Source: Collodictyon triciliatum (Eukaryota). From it: a DNA stretch of 55,882 bases. The position numbers and the translations under genes are program-made. A model generated the notes under the pieces. That model was not told the origin of the DNA. It did not search any database and saw only the letters and a list, made by a program, of their open reading frames with translations. How positions within the stretch are numbered: position 1 is the stretch's first letter; each line of letters begins with the position of its first letter. Positions 4,947-36,794 of this stretch are shown here, piece after piece. The stretch lies in NCBI GenBank assembly GCA_043381765.1, contig JBHJMP010000301.1, positions 1 through 55,882 on the forward strand, in the 5' to 3' direction.

Positions 4947-5957
4947 ATGAGTTCGTCGGAGGACGAGGAGGTGTACACGGTGGAGAAGATCCTTGCGCGC
5001 AAGAAAGTCCACGTAAGCAGCACCGAGACCGCCCCGCCGAGAGCGCCCCACTGACCCGAAGACTGACATGCAGGGCCGCTGGAAGTACCACCTCAAGTGG
5101 CTGGGCTACGAGGAGACCACGTGGGAGACGGAGGACAACCTGATCGGGTGCCAGGATCTGCTGCAGGAGTTTCTGCGGCAGGAGGACGCCAAGGACGGGC
5201 GGGCAAAGAAGGACAAGGACAAGGACAAGGACAAGGAGAAGGACAAGGACAAGGAGAAGGACAAGGACAGCGAGTCCACCACCCCGGCAAAGCCCGCCTC
5301 GCGCACCCCGGCAAAGACCCCGGCAAAGACCCCGGCCGCAGAGGCTGTGCGCCGCTCAAAGAGGAGGCTGGACGACGACGACGAAGACAACGACAACGGC
5401 GTGGCTCTGCCCTCCGGGCCGTCTGCTCCGCCCCCTGCGGCCGCAGCCTCCACCCCGGCAAACGCCCCCGAAGCCCGCCCGTCCCCCGCGACCAGGAAGG
5501 CCGTGCAGCGCGAGGTCAAGCTCTTCGACTCCCACTGCGAGTTCAGCAGCGACCCCGTCGAGATCACCGGCGCCCGCATGGTCGACGGCAGACTCTTCCT
5601 CGGTGTCCGCTTGTGCGTTGCCCTCCCGCCCTCCTTCTCTCTATCCACTCCTTTTCTTCTTTTTCTTGTTTTTTCCCTTTTTTTTCCCCCTTTTTCCCCT
5701 TTTTTCCCCTTTTTTCCCTTTTTTTTCCTTTTTTTTCCTTTTTTTTCCTTTTTTTCCTTTTTTTTTCCCTTTTTTTTCCCTTTTTTTTTCCATCCACTGA
5801 CTCACGCCAATCCCCCTTTGTCTGTAGCGACGGCGAGGAAAAGGCTATCAATTACTACCTTGCTTCCCTCCTCAACGTCAAAATACCTCAGCTGGTCATC
5901 AAGTTCTACGAGATGAGGCTCAAGTTCGACACTCCAAAACCCGCCAAAGCAGAGTAG
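4947..5957 (+). CDS. HP1: HP1/Swi6-like protein (chromodomain + hinge + chromo-shadow domain), 3 exons: 4947-5012, 5074-5612, 5828-5957
   Basis: YTVEKILARKKVH|GRWKYHLKWLGYEETTWETEDNL (chromodomain aromatic cage Y/W/Y); KD- and PAK-rich hinge; PVEITGARMVDGRLFLGVRF...NVKIPQLVIKFYEMRLKF (chromo-shadow). Both GT-AG introns are phase-consistent. Confidence 0.92.
5630..5790 (+). repeat. Polypyrimidine (T-run/CC) low-complexity tract in HP1 intron 2
   Basis: Runs of T interrupted by C/CC, followed by a CTGAC branch-like motif and the TAG acceptor at 5827. Confidence 0.85.
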
Positions 5958-28876: not shown

Positions 28877-30083
28877 CTAGTTTTCTCCGGAAGCGCTCGA
28901 AGTACTGGGCTCTGGCGTGTTGCATGAGTTCTTCTTTTTCAGTGCAGACACTTGCTTCTCTAGTTCCCTCTTTCGTGCTGTCATAAAAGTAATGTGTGGT
29001 GAGCAATTTCTGAGACCCTTTCATTTCTATCAAGCTGCTAGGTATTTTTTCTCTTATAGAATGATGGAAGAGTATATGGCTTGCAATTTATGCTACTCGT
29101 TGGCATCTCTTGTGATGTGTATAAAGTTTGGGCATTTATGATTCAGCTCGTCGGATGTGTATATCTGCATACCTTCCACAGCTTTCTTATCATGTATAAC
29201 CGGAAGAAACTTTGATACAATAGCGTTTTCTGGGTCTGTAGCTAGCACTAGAATTTATTTGGGATGATTAATGTGCAAATAAAAATGACTTTTTTACACT
29301 AAACCCCACTCCATATTATGTTATGGGTAGCGAATAGACAATATATGAGAAGAGTGAATAATAATCGGTATAACATTTTCATAATGATACTGAATAGGTG
29401 ACATATTTCGAAAGCTGCATATAAGGGTATTGTTTGTATCACTCCGGTCCCGAAAGACCCGAACGATTCTCATTTGGTTGGCCTGGATACCTATGTTTGC
29501 GATGTCCATGGCGTCGTCCCATCGCTCTGCAACCACGGCCGCATAAAACTATTGTCAGAGAGTCCTTTACAACCCGGAAGTGAAGGAGAAAAGGGGGTGA
29601 AACAAAAGAGCAGCATTTATCCGTTCGCTGGGTGTGCCGGCCGAAAGGCAGTCGAAACACGGCCCGAGCCAACAACCTGCACAGCGAACCCACCTTCTTC
29701 AAGAGCGACGCGGTGGCGGGCCTTTCGTCTTTGCCCGCGTCTGCAACCCCGGCGGGGTGGGGGCCGGAAAGAGGCCGATGGGCTGTGGTTGTGGCTGCTT
29801 CATGCGGCTGTGGCTGTGGCTGTGGCTGTGGCTGTGGCTGTGGCTGCCGAGGAGAGGGCGAGCGGGATGACAGCGGCCGTTGCGCTGCGGCTCGCCGAGA
29901 CCCAAGCGGGGGCTGTGCGGGGCTGCTGTGTGTGCCGGGCGGCGCTGAGTTTGGGGCCAGCGGTGGCAGGCGATCCCACGAGCCTCTGCGCGGCCCTGCG
30001 GCGTGTGCATCCAACGCGGTCGGGGCAGCAGGCAGCGGCCGGTTTGTGTGCCCCGTGGTCGGGGAGACAGGCAGGTGTGCCAT
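28877..30083 (-). CDS. ERICH2-like (glutamate-rich protein 2 core helix pair) protein, 4 exons
   Basis: Spliced core PATASLLKK|FYAAVVAERWDDAMDIANI|VLATDPENAIVSKFLPVIHDKK resembles, from memory, the ERICH2 conserved region (F..A........A......IL..EPEN.....F...I). Pro/Gln-rich exon 1; TAG ends at 28877. Confidence 0.6.
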
Positions 30084-30207
30084 GTCTAGGCCGCCTGCGT
30101 GGTCGCTGGTTGCGTTCCTTTTTTTTAAGTGTTTTCTTGTGTTGTGTTTGTTTTTTGTTCACGTTTTTTTTTTTTGTGTGTGTTGTATGTGTTTTTTTTA
30201 TGCATTC

Positions 30208-33200
30208 CTAAGACGGGTTCACGGCATCGGGATGGCAAAACAGAAAGTGGTGGTGGAGTCTGTAATCAGAACAGTAAGGGTCGGAGCATAAGCGCGGATG
30301 GGTATGCTGCGACTGGTGGTCCATGTTACTCAGCTCCCTGCAAAGCCCACCAGAGGGACATGTCGGCAGATTACCCACAATCCGCGAATGACCATTCGCG
30401 AAGGCGGCGCGCCCTAATTTCTCAGAAAACACGCGGAGGTTGGAACAAGGGTCGTCTGGGTCATCCTCCTGGATGGCTATCACCACCTGTCGAGAAGAAA
30501 AGAGTAGAACAGAATAGAAAAGAAAGATGATCAAGAAAGTTATAAGCGTCTGCATATAATTTGTATGGCTCCCGACCAACTACCACTACCAGCAACTTGA
30601 TGTATCAAGAGAGCCGAGCTAACACAGCTCGGTGAGGATGAAAAATAATCTGAAGGATAAGTTACAAAACTGGTCCTGTTAACACAAAAGATTCAAGACA
30701 TGTTTGTTTATTATTATCTTTTTCTTTTTCAATGAATCGAATAAAGGGAAAAAAATCTTTTTCTTTTTCAAAATTACAGCTGGTACTCACCTTTTTAAAA
30801 AAAACTGCAAATTGATAGAGCAGTGAGCGGTAGACTTCAGCTATAATATGATTTGGGTTTTCATATTGTTTGTCACATCCTAGAGGAACTAACACTAGAG
30901 CAGTTACTTCGTTCTGGACAGCCGTGCGAATAGCCCATTCTATCTTCTCCCTCACAATATAGAGGTCAACGAGGTTCATGTCCCCGTCTCTATCAAGCCG
31001 TGGGTTTGGTACTGGTGAAACACTCATGACATCACAGGTAAATGGCTTATTCAAGTAAGCATAGCCATAAAGATATCCTTTTCGAAAGACAACAACATCC
31101 TCGGTAGATATTCCGCCCCCTCTGCCACGGAAAGACCTTGCCAATGGATATCCCACAGCGCGGGTTGTCTGCACAGCAACATTCCAATTTGAATCCAAAC
31201 TCTGGCAAATGTTTGACTGGCGAAACAGAGACTCCTCTTGACTTCCAACCCTTGCTTTGTAATCTCCACCAGGTTTTTCGGGATTAGCAACTGACAATAA
31301 TGCAACTTTGAATCCTTCATCTGACAAGCTCTCTGCCACCGTTAGGGCATCAACACCAACAACACGGACGATACATTCACCAACAGGAGTTCTCTTGTTA
31401 ATTTGTATCGGAAGAAATGAAAATACAGACTGTTTTGGGCGAGGCAGAGTAAGAGCTTCCCCTTTTGGGGTCATGTAACTTCCCTTTCGAAGACATTCGA
31501 TTGTCGTACCCATCACCATTAAATGCATAGAAGCAACGTGCTTCTGAACATCAATCGAATCTCTTTTATTTCGACTTATTACCCCTGACTTTATTTCCGC
31601 TATGTCCTTCAACCACGTATCTGGATCCCATTTTTTATGAAAAACGGGATGGTTTGAAGGAATATTCCAAACATTGTGGATTTTTGCAAGACTCTGGCTA
31701 ATAAACATGGAATCAGAGGGCAATCCATGACACTCAGAGTTTATCTTGTTTCCACCAACAAGGTTGTCTGTGCATTTATCACATATTTCAGGTATGACGC
31801 CAGATATTTGATTAGATTCTGACATAAACCTTGGTAACGCTCCATTTCCAAAGTGATATGTATCATTTGCCATAGCATTCTGCTCATGTATTCGATGAGC
31901 AGTCTTTTTATCGTACCCATGTAGATCTCTTTTACTGACATAAATTGTTTCATTTTCCAGAGCTACTTCACCCTTCTTAGCCAAGGAGTCAAGGATCTCC
32001 AATGTCGATATATACAGGTACAGCAATCGAGAATCTACTTCGTATACAGATATCAATTTTCCATTCAAAGCAGAGTTCAAAGTATCATATAGTAGATGGG
32101 AATCAATAGTAAACTCTGGACCATACGCATATAAACAGAAAGGAATCAGCTGAACTGTTATGGATTCTATTATTAATTGTCCACTTTCAACCCTGAAGTA
32201 ATCTGTGATGCTTCGGAATGATATATGAAGAAATTTACAGTTGTCCAAAATGCTGATTGTTGCTTCATACTCTGCTAGTAACAATCTCAATTTTTTCGCA
32301 CATGAGAGAGAAGCGGGGAAGTCCCGAACAAAGCACTCGATTGGAGAAGTTCTCAAAACGCTAAAAACATATTCATCAAGCGACATGGTACGAAGGTTTA
32401 CATACTCTATACAAGACTGGGCTGAGCTAAAAATTAACAACCCCAAGTTAAGGGTATTTGATATTATGATATCTACAATATTAGAGTCTCTTTTTTTTAG
32501 TTTTTCTACCAGTGCACCAAACATAACGGCAAAGTGTTCATTTCTTAAATGAGGAAGTAGTATGGCTGCATATGTGTGATTCATGTCGTGTTCTACAGTA
32601 GTATGCTGGAATTGTGGGGGAAAAGGTAATCTTGATGAAGGTTTTGAAACCAAACTGGAGAGCATGCTAGTTTTAGCATTAGATATTGCACCATCCGATG
32701 CACGATTCTCTATGGCTGTTGATGATTTACTTGCTGACTTTCTCGTTAATTTTGTCTTCCTTTTTCCCTGAAGCCTCGAGTACGCCTCATCTTCAGATCT
32801 GGTGTTTGTTTTTGGGATGACAGTATTATGTATTTCCCCAATTTGGAGCTGTGTATTGGATGATTTCCTTTTCCACTTGAAAGATAACTGTAATGAAGAG
32901 TTTATGAAAAGAAAAAATTTATTCCTTTGTTTAGATGGGCGAAAGTGGTCGAAGAATTGAAGTATGGTTCATAATCTATATGGCCTAAAAACAAATATGT
33001 GAGTGTATTTGGTTCAAGATTTAAGTTATTTTTTTTTAGGAAGTGTGCCTTTGTAATACAACATTAGAATATTATTTGCAATGAAGTGAGACACTAACCT
33101 TGTAATCCGTCATGTTTTCTTCAAAGCTGCTCCACATCTCATCAAAATCAGAATCCTTAAATATGACAACATATTCATCAGAAATCAAATGAAGAAAATT

Positions 33201-33593
33201 CCAGTTGGGGGCCAGCTTAAACGATATCAGTTCATCACAAAGTTCTTTTGCTCGACCTCTTGCACTTCGAATTACTACTAGAGTGTCTGGCTCACAGCTT
33301 AATTGGATCTGAATGGATATTAAATATTGTAAATAAATGAACCGTAAGGGACTAATGGGTAATTTTACACCCACAAAAAAGTGAATGGAAAATGAAAGCA
33401 ATGATAAGCGGGGTAACTAAACTTTGTTGTTGTTTTTGTTGTTTTTGTTGTTTTTGTTGTTTTTGTTGTTTTTGTTGTTTTTGTTGTTTTTGTTGTTTTT
33501 GTTGTTTTTGTTGTTTTTGTTTTTGTTTTTGTTTTTGTTTTTGTTTTTGTTTTTGTTTTTGTTTTTGTTTTTGTTTTTGTTTTTGTTTTTGTT

Positions 33594-33677
<84 letters not shown>

Positions 33678-34134
33678 AATAAAAGAAAGCTGGGTTTAAT
33701 GTCATCCTCGTGATTTGATAGGTGCCACAAAATGAAGATAAAAACGATGCAGATAAAGCATACTTTGGGTGTGATATGAGCGTGAATGATGCAAGAAAGA
33801 GAAGGCGTTTTGAGGATAAAGAGTGAACAATATAGGAAAAGAAATGTCTAAATGGCCTGTTTAAGCGTGGCTGAGAGACATAACGAGTGGTGTATCTGAG
33901 GGTGGCAGGTAAAACCTTTGCATTTTCGATTTGGATGGGGCTGTCGAGGACAAAGAGCTCATAAAACTTGGATAGGCTTGTCGTGGTAACAAGAGCCGCA
34001 TTTGACCCAGTGTCCATGTGAATGTTTCTGACGTCCAAGACAACACGGTACGCCCGAGACAAGCCAGATTGCAGTTTCTCGCGCGTCAGACGCACCCCTG
34101 CGTTGCAAGTGAGACGCACTCGGAACGTAGACAT
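30208..34134 (-). CDS. Microbial-type poly(ADP-ribose) glycohydrolase (DUF2263/TIGR02452 macrodomain) with long N-terminal region of degenerate RRM-like units and two C-terminal PBZ-like zinc fingers; about 4 exons
   Basis: ATG 34134 (MSTFRVRL). Large exon about 32888-30791 contains VRVVGVDALTVAESL...KVALLSVANPEKPGGDYKARVGSQEESLFRQS, EDVVVFRK, CDVMSVSPVPNP and ALVLVPLGC...NP. Final exon VVIAI...CPSGGLC-x7-H-x5-H, CSDPYC-x6-H-x5-H; TAG ends at 30208. Confidence 0.85.
33423..33663. repeat. Compound (TTGTTTTTG)n-(TTTTTG)n-polyT tract in PARG intron 1
   Basis: Graded 9-mer, 6-mer and mononucleotide arrays. Confidence 0.95.
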
Positions 34135-34425
34135 GACCGCACAACGCGCAGGCCGATCAAAGAAACTCAAGCGGGCCTATTCTCTCTTTACTCTTTATTC
34201 TTTTTCTCTTCGTCAGATGAGTCCTTTGTGCGCAGCTGGGCCAAGCGAGGCTGGGCGGTTCGTTTATTATTGGCGTGTGGGTTGTGTGGGTTGTCGGGTG
34301 CCGCGGCTTGTGAATGACCCAGACAGGCAAAATTCCCGCTTTGGGCACAAAGAGACGGGGAGGGAAGGGCAGCGTTTGGAGCGACTTGTGCTGTGAATCC
34401 CGTCGCCCGGCCGTGGCTCGCGGCC

Positions 34426-36794
34426 TCAACGAGAGGTCGTCCCGAACTGCGCAAAGAACTCGCTGGTGGGCTGGTTTGTGTACACGCTATTGTACAGATG
34501 GTCGTATCTGTGGCTGGGCGATTAGAACAACTGCTGCGCCCTCGTTTCAGGTGAAGATACAGCAAGGCAGGGAGTGTGGCGACAATCGAGCAACAAAGAT
34601 TCACCTCTGCTTATGCTCTTCCGCCTGTCTCTCATGCTCGCGGTGCTGTTCTTGAAGTTGGCGCTGGCTAATCCGCTTTTTTTCGCGCTCTTGAAGTATG
34701 GCACTGCGCCTCAATGCTTCTTGCTGTTGGTCCCACTGCCTCTGCTCTTCTTGCTCGAGTTCTTTTTGAGTCTGGGCAAATTGTTTGCCTTGTTAGTGGA
34801 TGCGTGAGAACTTGTAAGGTGACAGGTCGGGAAGATACCACAAGACACATCAGACATCCACCAGGCATATAAACACCTATTATTACTGGAATTGTTTTGG
34901 ATATGTAAAGACCAGGCCAACTGTTTACCATTTTTTGCTTTCGCTGTCTTTCTTGTTCCTTTAAAATTGCCTCGCGTTCTCGTGCGCTCATTCCTTTGTA
35001 TTGTGCAGTGATTAACCTAAGTATGCGGATGCAAAGTATATTAAATCACTATTTTGACATTATTTAAGAGTGAAAATATAATGAGTATGTAAGGATTGCA
35101 TTACAGACATCAGCAGTACCTCGTATCCAACAAATTATGTTTGAAAAAACAAAATATAGCTGCGATGAAAAATTAAAAGGAAGAAGGAAAAAGAAATCAC
35201 CAGTTAATTGAAGAGGTTCAATTACCTGTTTGGCATCGTTTCACTAAAGGCAAGAGCTGGGTTTTCTGTCATCATGTCTGCATGGAGGATGTGCTGGATC
35301 TCTGATTCAGACTGTTGCGCATCTTTCAGGCGGTATTCCAAATCTTTCTCTCTCTTTTCTAGAGCCTAGGAATATGGGAAAAAATATATACAGTTTCTAT
35401 GATTACTTTTATTCATCATTTACGGTTTAAAATCAATGATATTTCTCTTTCTTTTGTTCAAAGTATTTAGATTGATTCGTCAATATAAAAGTTGTAGCAA
35501 GGTGGGCCGTGATATTGGAAGTTTGCTGATTTCCTAAAGATCGTACATACATTTGGAATATTTAGCACTTACTTGATGACGGTGGTAGCTCCCAAGCATC
35601 ATAACATCATGCTTTCTTCGTTCTTCAAGTTCCCGCTCAATATATGAGGCTTCCTGAAGAAGAGATGCTTCCATGTCCTCGTATTGCCTATGATTATAGC
35701 AATTGGTTGATTGAACTCTCTGGGGGTTCTCTTTATGTGTTTTATTGTTTTGAGCTGAGTCATATTCACGGAATGTTGTACTGGTGCAAGAGGTATGGTA
35801 AGACAAACCTGTCTAATGTACGCTCCTGGGTGCGTCGTTGTGATTTCTCCTCTGCGTGTTGTTGGATCCAAACTCTCATCTGTTCTTGTTGAATTGCTTT
35901 TCTTTCTGGATTCGACAGGTCCTCTCCAACAAATTTCTGCATGCTGGAAGGCCCGATTCTTGGGTCATCGTCACTAATCTGAATGACATGAATGGAAACA
36001 CATGTTGATTTTGATATAAATATATTCACGATAGCACTAGATCCGGCAAAAAAATAATAATAATAATTGCTGGTGTTGTATATCAGAATAATTAGAGTTG
36101 ATATTGAGCTACACAAGAACATGTCATTTTTCATCAAAAACTTAACAATTTAATTTATGTACGAAATGATGAATATGATTGGATAATAAAAGAATCATTC
36201 AACACGCACTCTGGCAGGAAGTCCTTTCTTGAGTGATTCTGGGTCGTTCAAATCAAACTCCCTGCGACTTTGGAATGTTTGGTGATCTTTCCGATAGGAA
36301 ATGATATTTTCGATTTGCTTCTTTCTAAATTCTTGGCGGTCCTTCTCTTGCAACTCTAACATGACTGTCTGTTCACGTACCATGTTTTCTACATTCGGAC
36401 CATCATATTAGTGGTTGCTGCTCCATTTATAACACGGAGCAACAAATCCATCAATAAAAATAAGAATATTAAAAATAAAAAAAAAGGTGGCTGTAGTGCG
36501 CGCATGTAAATATCAATCAAGTGAATTGAAATAAGCAAAGTACCGAAATACGCTTCCCGCAACCTTTCTGCCTCTTTGGCCTCCTGCTTATCATGGATCT
36601 GCTTCTGTATCCCTTCTGTGTCGATCTGTGTGTGGGAGGTGCTTGAGAATACATTTGGAGTCGATCTCAAAATGAAAGGCACGCCCAACTGCGACCACGC
36701 AAGGAGTGGACAAGGACATGGGAGCTATCATGCCCCTTTTCTCTCAAAGACACTCACCCCAGCGACTGAACACTGCCATAAAAGAGGACACAGA

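Follow-up and report, generated by a model that had tools for sequence, protein, structure and literature searches.

Our analysis of a stretch of the Collodictyon triciliatum genome (contig JBHJMP010000301.1 of assembly GCA_043381765.1, positions 1-55,882, hereafter the window) points to a minus-strand gene of four exons, at 30,208-34,134, that probably encodes a 934-aa poly(ADP-ribose) glycohydrolase (PARG) of the microbial type. The predicted protein carries two N-terminal modules, a linker, three modules that resemble RNA recognition motifs (RRMs), a macrodomain with a QEE catalytic triplet, and a C-terminal pair of PBZ-related fingers that would target ADP-ribose; we give this reading as a whole a probability of about 0.55. 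The most likely function, judged from sequence, is that of an ADP-ribose glycohydrolase targeted by PBZ-derived fingers. The macrodomain would remove terminal ADP-ribose units, as the solved bacterial PARGs do (for the bacterial mechanism, see PMC6445106). Like the paired PBZ fingers of APLF, the two fingers would hold the enzyme on ADP-ribose polymers or on targets that are ADP-ribosylated, and the N-terminal modules, as modeled, may offer an extra binding surface for protein or nucleic acid.

The catalytic domain lies in a 768-codon stop-to-stop frame on the minus strand (30662-32968), and a profile search with this unspliced open reading frame matches PF10021 at E 1.3e-12, with 48.8 bits against a cut-off of 23.5. 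The initial annotation had placed a microbial PARG signature near 31233-31274; it overlaps NPEKPGGDYKARVGSQEESLFRQS, encoded at about 31285-31214 inside the PF10021 match. A HMMER search of 1.84 billion representative proteins returned 1265 matches at E<=1e-3, 309 of them at E<=1e-10 and three at E<=1e-30, and all of the best 150 of the 1265 run through residues 390-699 of exon 3. A word-index protein search with the 667-aa open reading frame gave three matches, all bacterial, among 8000 scored candidates. In an AlphaFold2 model built on a 73-row alignment, the PARG domain reaches predicted local distance difference test (pLDDT) values of 80-98. This model matches the structure of Thermomonospora curvata PARG (3sih) at a Foldseek E of 3.9e-10, and VIA-align gives Z 24.9 with a root-mean-square deviation of 2.5 over 233 residues; Deinococcus radiodurans PARG follows at Z 20.5, and generic macrodomains score about 14. 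The residues of the QEE triplet are those found in nearly all of 72 relatives (Q in 71, the first E in 71, the second E in 69), and the flanking SLFRQSN is kept as well. The microbial-type identity first proposed for this domain is thus borne out by PF10021, Foldseek and VIA-align. Because profile, predicted fold and catalytic triplet all fit, we regard the domain as a divergent member of the microbial-type PARGs.

Several findings weigh against an ordinary, active enzyme. On TIGR02452 the domain scores 48.6 bits, just under the cut-off of 50, when scored on the unspliced frame, which lacks the part of the domain encoded in exon 4. The window also departs from the standard Gly-rich (GGG) and diphosphate loops. 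In the Gly-rich catalytic loop, GGD replaces GGG, the third glycine of which is present in 65/72 relatives; the loop reads GGDYKARVGSQEE in the window and GGGFLGGAQAQEE in the D. radiodurans enzyme, as given in PMC6445106. Two further conserved positions have changed, one from G to R (G in 67/72) and one from A to S (A in 69/72). The diphosphate loop has gone from GCGAF to GCDKQY, with an aspartate where 71/72 relatives have glycine (the only other aspartate is in P0009, a protein of Diphylleia rotans), with one inserted residue seen in 0/72, and with an asparagine in place of a proline found in 69/72. Departures from residues kept in 65 to 71 of 72 relatives mean that substrate binding or activity may be altered or lost. 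Hydrolase activity is therefore plausible but not assured, since loop positions have changed despite the retained QEE.

These loop changes make a reader, or an enzyme of altered specificity, a serious rival, if an unlikely one. The remodelled loops would then block normal exo-hydrolysis of poly(ADP-ribose) (PAR), and the protein would serve as a scaffold that binds ADP-ribose or act on another ADP-ribose conjugate. The five replaced G, A and P positions and the inserted residue all favor this explanation. So does P0009, which shares the G>D change and has lost both the first glutamate of the triplet (QDE) and most of the diphosphate loop, suggesting a sub-branch that is drifting from the standard site. 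The intact Q-E-E with its SLFRQSN flank speaks for an enzyme, however, as do the confident domain model and its close fit to the T. curvata structure. Most coding differences between the window and a set of near-identical contigs (below) are synonymous, which indicates constraint but does not separate enzyme from reader.

When the four exons are joined, every junction is GT-AG and phase 0, and the resulting 934-codon frame has a single, terminal stop. An intron had been claimed at 30790-30488; we find it at 30790-30487, within one base. An in-frame stop lies just 5' of the exon 1 ATG (open reading frame 33352-34176), and the exon 1 donor is AAG/GTTTTA. The spliced product and the transcript-derived P0009, the closest relative of comparable length, are collinear from Met1 as far as the second finger, and all three junctions are free of gaps. 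The start of P0009, MFKVKLTSN, pairs with MSTFRVRLTCN of exon 1, and the alignment crosses the junction of exons 1 and 2 ungapped. Identity amounts to 203/832 aligned residues, distributed over exons 1 to 4 as 17/62, 14/64, 147/614 and 25/92. A bacterial PARG, P0004, aligns through the junction of exons 3 and 4, with FFKK/VVIAIQEDDPDDPCSNLRVFSEKLGR of the window opposite KYRVVRFAVIEDH-NSRHSNFAPFDRQFNR and, further along, NLRVFSEKL opposite NFAPFDRQF; the conserved terminal part of the macrodomain is thus encoded in exon 4. The alignments with P0004 and P0009 agree that the last exon is coding, as the initial annotation had it. Besides the tandem CCHH pair, this exon holds what the macrodomain would otherwise lack.

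Three runs of contigs, X1-X3, whose kind (DNA or RNA) is a guess, speak neither for nor against expression or splicing. The pieces of X1 span no more than 30164-32047, and X2 and X3 cover only the low-complexity 30164-30199. Over its longer pieces X1 is 98-99% identical to the window. It shows ten coding differences, of which eight are synonymous and two change the residue (I>L and L>M); two fall in exon 4, both synonymous in the finger frame. Of intron 3, X1 covers about 265 bases, with five substitutions, and it has a 39-nt gap there as well. This contrast favors the gene model. The 39-nt gap is in X1 contig 4, which lacks 30716-30754 in a region of a repeated GAAAAAGAAAAAGAT-like unit, and is an indel polymorphism between close strains.

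The exon structure, including the splice into the last exon, is supported by homology. One point counts against this splice: one X1 contig crosses intron 3 unspliced, which is uninformative if the contig is DNA and would indicate intron retention or pre-mRNA if it is RNA. It would fit a transcript that reads past the donor and stops at 30662, leaving the CCHH frame as a chance pattern in untranslated sequence. We consider this very improbable. The conserved VxFAIxD strand of the macrodomain is encoded, in frame, by exon 4 and would be missing without it. Translated in six frames, the window gives 111,760 residues, in which the pattern C-x4/5-C-x6/7-H-x5-H is found only four times; two of these are the adjacent, in-frame pair. 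The tandem pair is thus non-random against a background of two other matches. The 64-aa tail, moreover, aligns to P0009 at E 1.1e-9, and both X1 differences in exon 4 are silent in the finger frame.

The two finger strings noticed at the outset lie in one frame with the Cys/His spacing that had been given for them. We built a hidden Markov model from 196 C-x5-C fingers of relatives. On this model finger 1 scores 19.9 bits, a level reached by 4/1000 shuffles that kept the ligands and by 0/1000 composition decoys. Finger 2 scores only -3.2 bits on the same C-x5-C model, and its homology therefore rests on the tandem alignment. In that alignment it pairs with the second finger of P0009, P0007 (also from D. 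rotans) and P0076, and of rotifer-type arrays, with a shared HP-x-LC linker and F-x-F-x-H ending. The consensus of the tail with its relatives is P-C-x5-C-R-[DE]-L-x4-H-x5-H-P-x-L-C-x4/5-C-x6/7-H-x-F-x-F-x-H. Among 177 collected proteins, BLASTP with the tail also finds P0076 (E 4.9e-8) and residues 808-836 of P0021 (E 4.85e-5). Residues 809-833 of P0021 are the stretch that Pfam rates as the best PBZ match in that protein, and they have the x7 form, as finger 1 does. The PBZ family PF10283 is matched above its cut-off by two of 12 other relatives (P0021 at 34.5 bits, P0068 at 44.1), below it by four and not at all by six; in the Diphylleia relatives, 0/6 match. With the rotifer fragment P0176, a PDB sequence search matches only the tandem PBZ of APLF (E 0.0051). 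On these alignments the window fingers are homologous to the first two fingers of the PARG-linked arrays in rotifer and protist relatives.

The searches with exon 4 itself weigh against calling these PBZ fingers. Pfam at E<=10 returns no family and hence no PBZ match, and a PDB sequence search finds neither APLF nor CHFR, its one row being a chance-level TetR match (E 0.56). The ESM Atlas gave no usable match with exon 4. The spacings, x5/x7/x5 in finger 1 and x4/x6/x5 in finger 2, are each one residue off the x5/x6/x5 of APLF. The PBZ consensus described in PMC4756826 has [K/R] at C-3; [F/Y]-G follows the first cysteine and a basic pair the second, and another [F/Y] stands two residues ahead of the last histidine. 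From it finger 1 keeps only the glycine, with S at the first [F/Y] position, H at the last and no basic pair; finger 2 keeps only the last aromatic, within a C-x4-C arrangement that lacks the glycine and the basic pair. The earlier assignment to PBZ therefore stands in part. The fingers are homologous to those linked to PARG in other proteins, some of which Pfam scores as PBZ and which, in a rotifer fragment, match APLF, but in the window they have no Pfam match of their own, are each one residue away from the APLF spacing and lack most of the consensus residues. We accordingly call them PBZ-like (PBZ-derived) and not PBZ, because homology to recognized PBZ fingers is found and a Pfam match and the consensus residues are not.

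It is possible, though on the unlikely side, that the fingers are PBZ-descended zinc modules that do not bind PAR and serve structure or the binding of nucleic acid or protein instead. The substitutions at the aromatic positions of finger 1, the C-x4-C and missing glycine of finger 2, the missing basic pairs and the empty Pfam search would all agree with this. Precedent may exist in the human SNM1A PBZ, which according to PMC4756826 lacks critical residues and may not bind PAR. Against this, the fingers directly follow an ADP-ribose-processing domain, as in the relatives that pass the Pfam PBZ threshold, and their ligands, the finger 1 glycine, the HP-x-LC linker and the finger 2 aromatic are conserved. 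We infer that the window fingers would bind zinc and might bind PAR; the missing Pfam match, the one-residue differences in spacing and the mostly absent consensus residues keep the latter tentative. Tandem PBZ fingers cooperate in PAR binding in the account of PMC4756826.

The N-terminal region had been described as RRM-like on the strength of recurring short patterns, and the strings cited (NAALVTT, LGLLIFSSAQ, FLHISFRS, LLYLYIST) are all present. The recurrence itself did not hold up. BLASTP found no sequence repeat, and hhalign among the five N-terminal modules detected none, with probabilities of 0.2 or less. The resemblance to RRMs comes from predicted topology and fold. With an AlphaFold2 model of the N-terminal region, Foldseek returns nearly exclusively multi-RRM proteins, led by Prp24 (E 8.1e-5) and including Raver1, U2AF65 and HuR, at TM scores of about 0.25. 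VIA-align matches the third of the three exon 3 modules to RRMs at Z 7-8, a range common for unrelated matches, and the first of them to RRMs and ABM-type ferredoxin folds alike, again at Z 7-8. The models are of low confidence, which weighs against the assignment: pLDDT is 57-76 for the three modules in the 73-row model, and a second model of the N-terminal 236 aa on a 5-row alignment has a mean of 47.8, so that its fold matches are leads only. Searched at E<=10, Pfam yields no RRM for exons 1 and 2 or for the initial 429 aa of exon 3, with a single weak DUF6839 match in exon 2 (E 0.2). Strict and relaxed RNP1/RNP2 patterns match nowhere in residues 1-590, and the ESM Atlas gave no usable match with the N-terminal 440 aa. 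In sequence searches the N-terminus is found only in P0009, a second stretch of it by HMMER. Among the N-termini of five family proteins, BLASTP links only the window and P0009 (E 1.2e-4 over 284 residues). The term RRM-like thus describes the modeled fold reasonably well; as a family assignment it fails on RNP motifs, Pfam and inter-module repeats.

The RRM resemblance raises the alternative that the protein is an eraser of ADP-ribosylated RNA, in which the N-terminal array binds RNA and delivers the PARG domain to ADP-ribosylated RNA ends or 2'-OH sites. A 2025 paper on the reversal of RNA ADP-ribosylation by bacterial-type PARGs (PMC11833690) reports that such enzymes reverse in vitro the 2'-OH RNA ADP-ribosylation made by RhsP2 and act in vitro on RNA and DNA ends that carry an ADP-ribosylated 5'-phosphate, and RRMs are what the predicted modules resemble most. 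We nevertheless hold this alternative to be improbable. The modules match neither the RNP1/RNP2 patterns nor a Pfam RRM, the models are of low confidence, the first module fits ABM-type ferredoxin folds equally well, and no ADP-ribosyltransferase or RNA-related neighbor was seen among the frames of the window. A fuller version, which we think likewise improbable, would have five degenerate RRM-like modules bring a remodelled-loop PARG to RNA while PBZ-derived fingers read the mark. If true, it would describe a lineage-specific reader-eraser for nucleic-acid ADP-ribosylation in Diphylleia-related protists. The antiviral or antitoxin role that had also been suggested finds no footing, as nothing in this eukaryotic locus points to defence.

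Comparison with known systems places the glycohydrolase proposed here, with its PBZ-derived fingers, among the eukaryotic PARG fusions. CCHH-type fingers occur in 39/162 collected proteins other than that of the window, mostly as arrays directly after the PARG domain, with named examples in Adineta vaga, Rotaria species and the malawimonad Gefionella okellyi (P0027). Several PBZ repeats in the bacterial-type PARG of A. vaga, credited to Slade et al. 2011, appear in a figure of PARG and bactPARG domains in Perina et al. 2014 (PMC4245714). Because the fusion of PARG and PBZ repeats was already reported there, and with many relatives sharing the architecture, the novelty implied by the initial annotation falls away: the window protein is a further variant of the rotifer-type fusion, not new in kind. 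In the bdelloid rotifer PARGs P0068 (A. vaga, 2297 aa) and P0030 (Rotaria, 1903 aa), too, C-x5-C-x6/7-H-x5-H fingers and their HPP-x-C linker come straight after the PARG domain, and the two window fingers align with the first two of these arrays. The rotifer proteins differ in having 5 to 14 fingers, other domains (a RanBP zinc ribbon in P0068) and standard GGG and GCGAF loops, whereas the window has only two, more degenerate fingers, five N-terminal modules and atypical loops.

The closest relatives among the matches listed are the Diphylleia rotans proteins P0009 (1135 aa) and P0007 (903 aa) from EukProt EP00002, at E 2.7e-32 and 6.2e-38, and both have the same tandem finger pair after the PARG domain. 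P0009 is collinear with the window protein over the full length of the latter, N-terminus included, at 24% identity overall, and has the G>D loop change in common with it; it differs in its QDE triplet and in a long tail with two more fingers. P0007 differs in having standard loops and an N-terminus without detectable sequence similarity. The second CCHH pair of P0009 lies at residues 1072-1117, after a low-complexity spacer of about 220 aa, and with its diphosphate loop largely lost P0009 may be a non-catalytic paralogue.

The solved bacterial PARGs of T. curvata (3sig/3sih) and D. radiodurans (5zda-5zdg) share fold and QEE with the window but are single-domain proteins, about 250-277 aa long, that have neither fingers nor N-terminal modules. 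APLF's tandem PBZ (2kuo, 2kqb) resembles the window pair in being two adjacent C2H2 fingers of about 20 residues. It differs in its C-x5-C-x6-H-x5-H spacing with Y-G and Y-R-K-N-P, residues the window lacks, and there is no direct sequence match between the two. Further variants appear among the relatives. In P0076, noted at residues 1734-1992, a microbial-type PARG is combined with an array of nine fingers and with two WWE domains (PF02825, E 4.8e-23), an arrangement that by its domain matches puts two kinds of PAR reader on one eraser. Weak DUF4283 matches stand just N-terminal of the PARG domain in two finger-bearing proteins, P0015 (residues 34-85, E 0.14) and P0068 (residues 589-642, E 0.024); many members of this eukaryotic group may have an alpha/beta module ahead of PARG.

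The solved structures of bacterial-type PARGs that we found are only of single-domain forms, and the eukaryotic multidomain forms are only listed in surveys. The window, its Diphylleia relatives and G. okellyi P0027 extend the fusion of PARG with PBZ-type fingers beyond rotifers, into deep-branching protists. The window adds two features, neither found paired with a bacterial-type PARG in the literature searched: the N-terminal ferredoxin/RRM-like array, and a remodelled substrate loop alongside QEE. Nor did that search give, among the matches listed, anything that describes the Diphylleia proteins or RRM-like modules on a bacterial-type PARG. If active, the protein would provide a natural setting for asking how an exo-glycohydrolase is tuned by reader fingers, and also whether in eukaryotes nucleic-acid ADP-ribosylation is acted on by bacterial-type PARGs; if inactive, it would illustrate how a PARG becomes a reader.

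Table 1. Features of the predicted PARG gene of C. triciliatum, in window coordinates.
Feature	Position	Strand	Description
Exon 1	33916..34134	-	73 aa; ATG at 34134; N-terminal module 1
Intron 1	33309..33915	-	GT..AG ends; poly(A)/(CAAAAA)n microsatellite at 33423-33663
Exon 2	33099..33308	-	70 aa; N-terminal module 2; acceptor CCATTCAG/, donor AAG/GTTAGT; phase 0; collinear with P0009
Intron 2	32888..33098	-	GTTAGT...CATTACAG
Exon 3	30791..32887	-	699 aa; S/K/T-rich linker, three RRM-like modules, most of PARG domain; open frame
Linker	32588..32887	-	Exon 3 residues 1 to ~100; S/K/T-rich, KRK clusters; pLDDT 27-41, no secondary structure
Three predicted beta-alpha-beta-beta-alpha-beta (ferredoxin/RRM-like) modules	31913..32578	-	Exon 3 residues ~104-325; AlphaFold2 secondary structure
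Microbial-type PARG macrodomain with N-terminal helical extension	30791..31720	-	Exon 3 residues ~390-699; runs on into exon 4
QEE catalytic triplet	31232..31240	-	Within PGGDYKARVGSQEE
Diphosphate-binding loop, atypical	30851..30886	-	PLGCDKQYENPN; relatives A-L-G-C-G-A-F-x-N-P-P
Intron 3	30487..30790	-	Donor AAG/GTGAGT (consensus), polypyrimidine tract, acceptor ...TTCTCGACAG/G
Exon 4	30208..30486	-	92 aa and TAG; last macrodomain strand and helix (VVIAIQEDD...), then tandem fingers
Finger 1	30298..30360	-	CPSGGLCRELSNMDHQSQHTH; C-x5-C-x7-H-x5-H
Finger 2	30232..30288	-	CSDPYCSDYRLHHHFLFCH; C-x4-C-x6-H-x5-H

The microsatellite of intron 1 reads on the plus strand as a T-rich array of 240 nt, with a period of six (TTTGTT), then a period of 18, then a long run of T. 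In the open frame 33352-34176 it gives rise to a K/Q run that has no counterpart in P0009. The Pfam and NCBIfam matches of that frame (ZIP, DNA polymerase III tau and others) were rejected as spurious, because they fall on this low-complexity run.

The window as a whole is that of an intron-bearing eukaryote, with long open frames sparse. Neighboring frames encode chromo and chromo-shadow domains, LRR, ankyrin, RIB43A, WD40 and melibiase fragments. The RIB43A fragments occupy 34668-36149 on the minus strand, in at least two exons immediately upstream of the PARG gene (PF05914, E 4.9e-19 and 4.8e-4); as RIB43A is a ciliary protofilament ribbon protein, the organism is likely flagellated or ciliated. 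On the plus strand at 5017-5957, a chromo domain (frame 5017-5916) and a chromo-shadow domain (frame 5067-5957) lie in two overlapping frames, an arrangement suggestive of an HP1-like gene whose two domains are separated by an intron or a frame change. Just downstream of the PARG stop, a GC-rich block at about 29400-30200 contains a GGCTGT hexamer array of 10.8 copies (29781-29846). All six frames of the block are open, including a 214-aa ATG frame without a family match, and the block is probably an untranslated region or an intergenic repeat.

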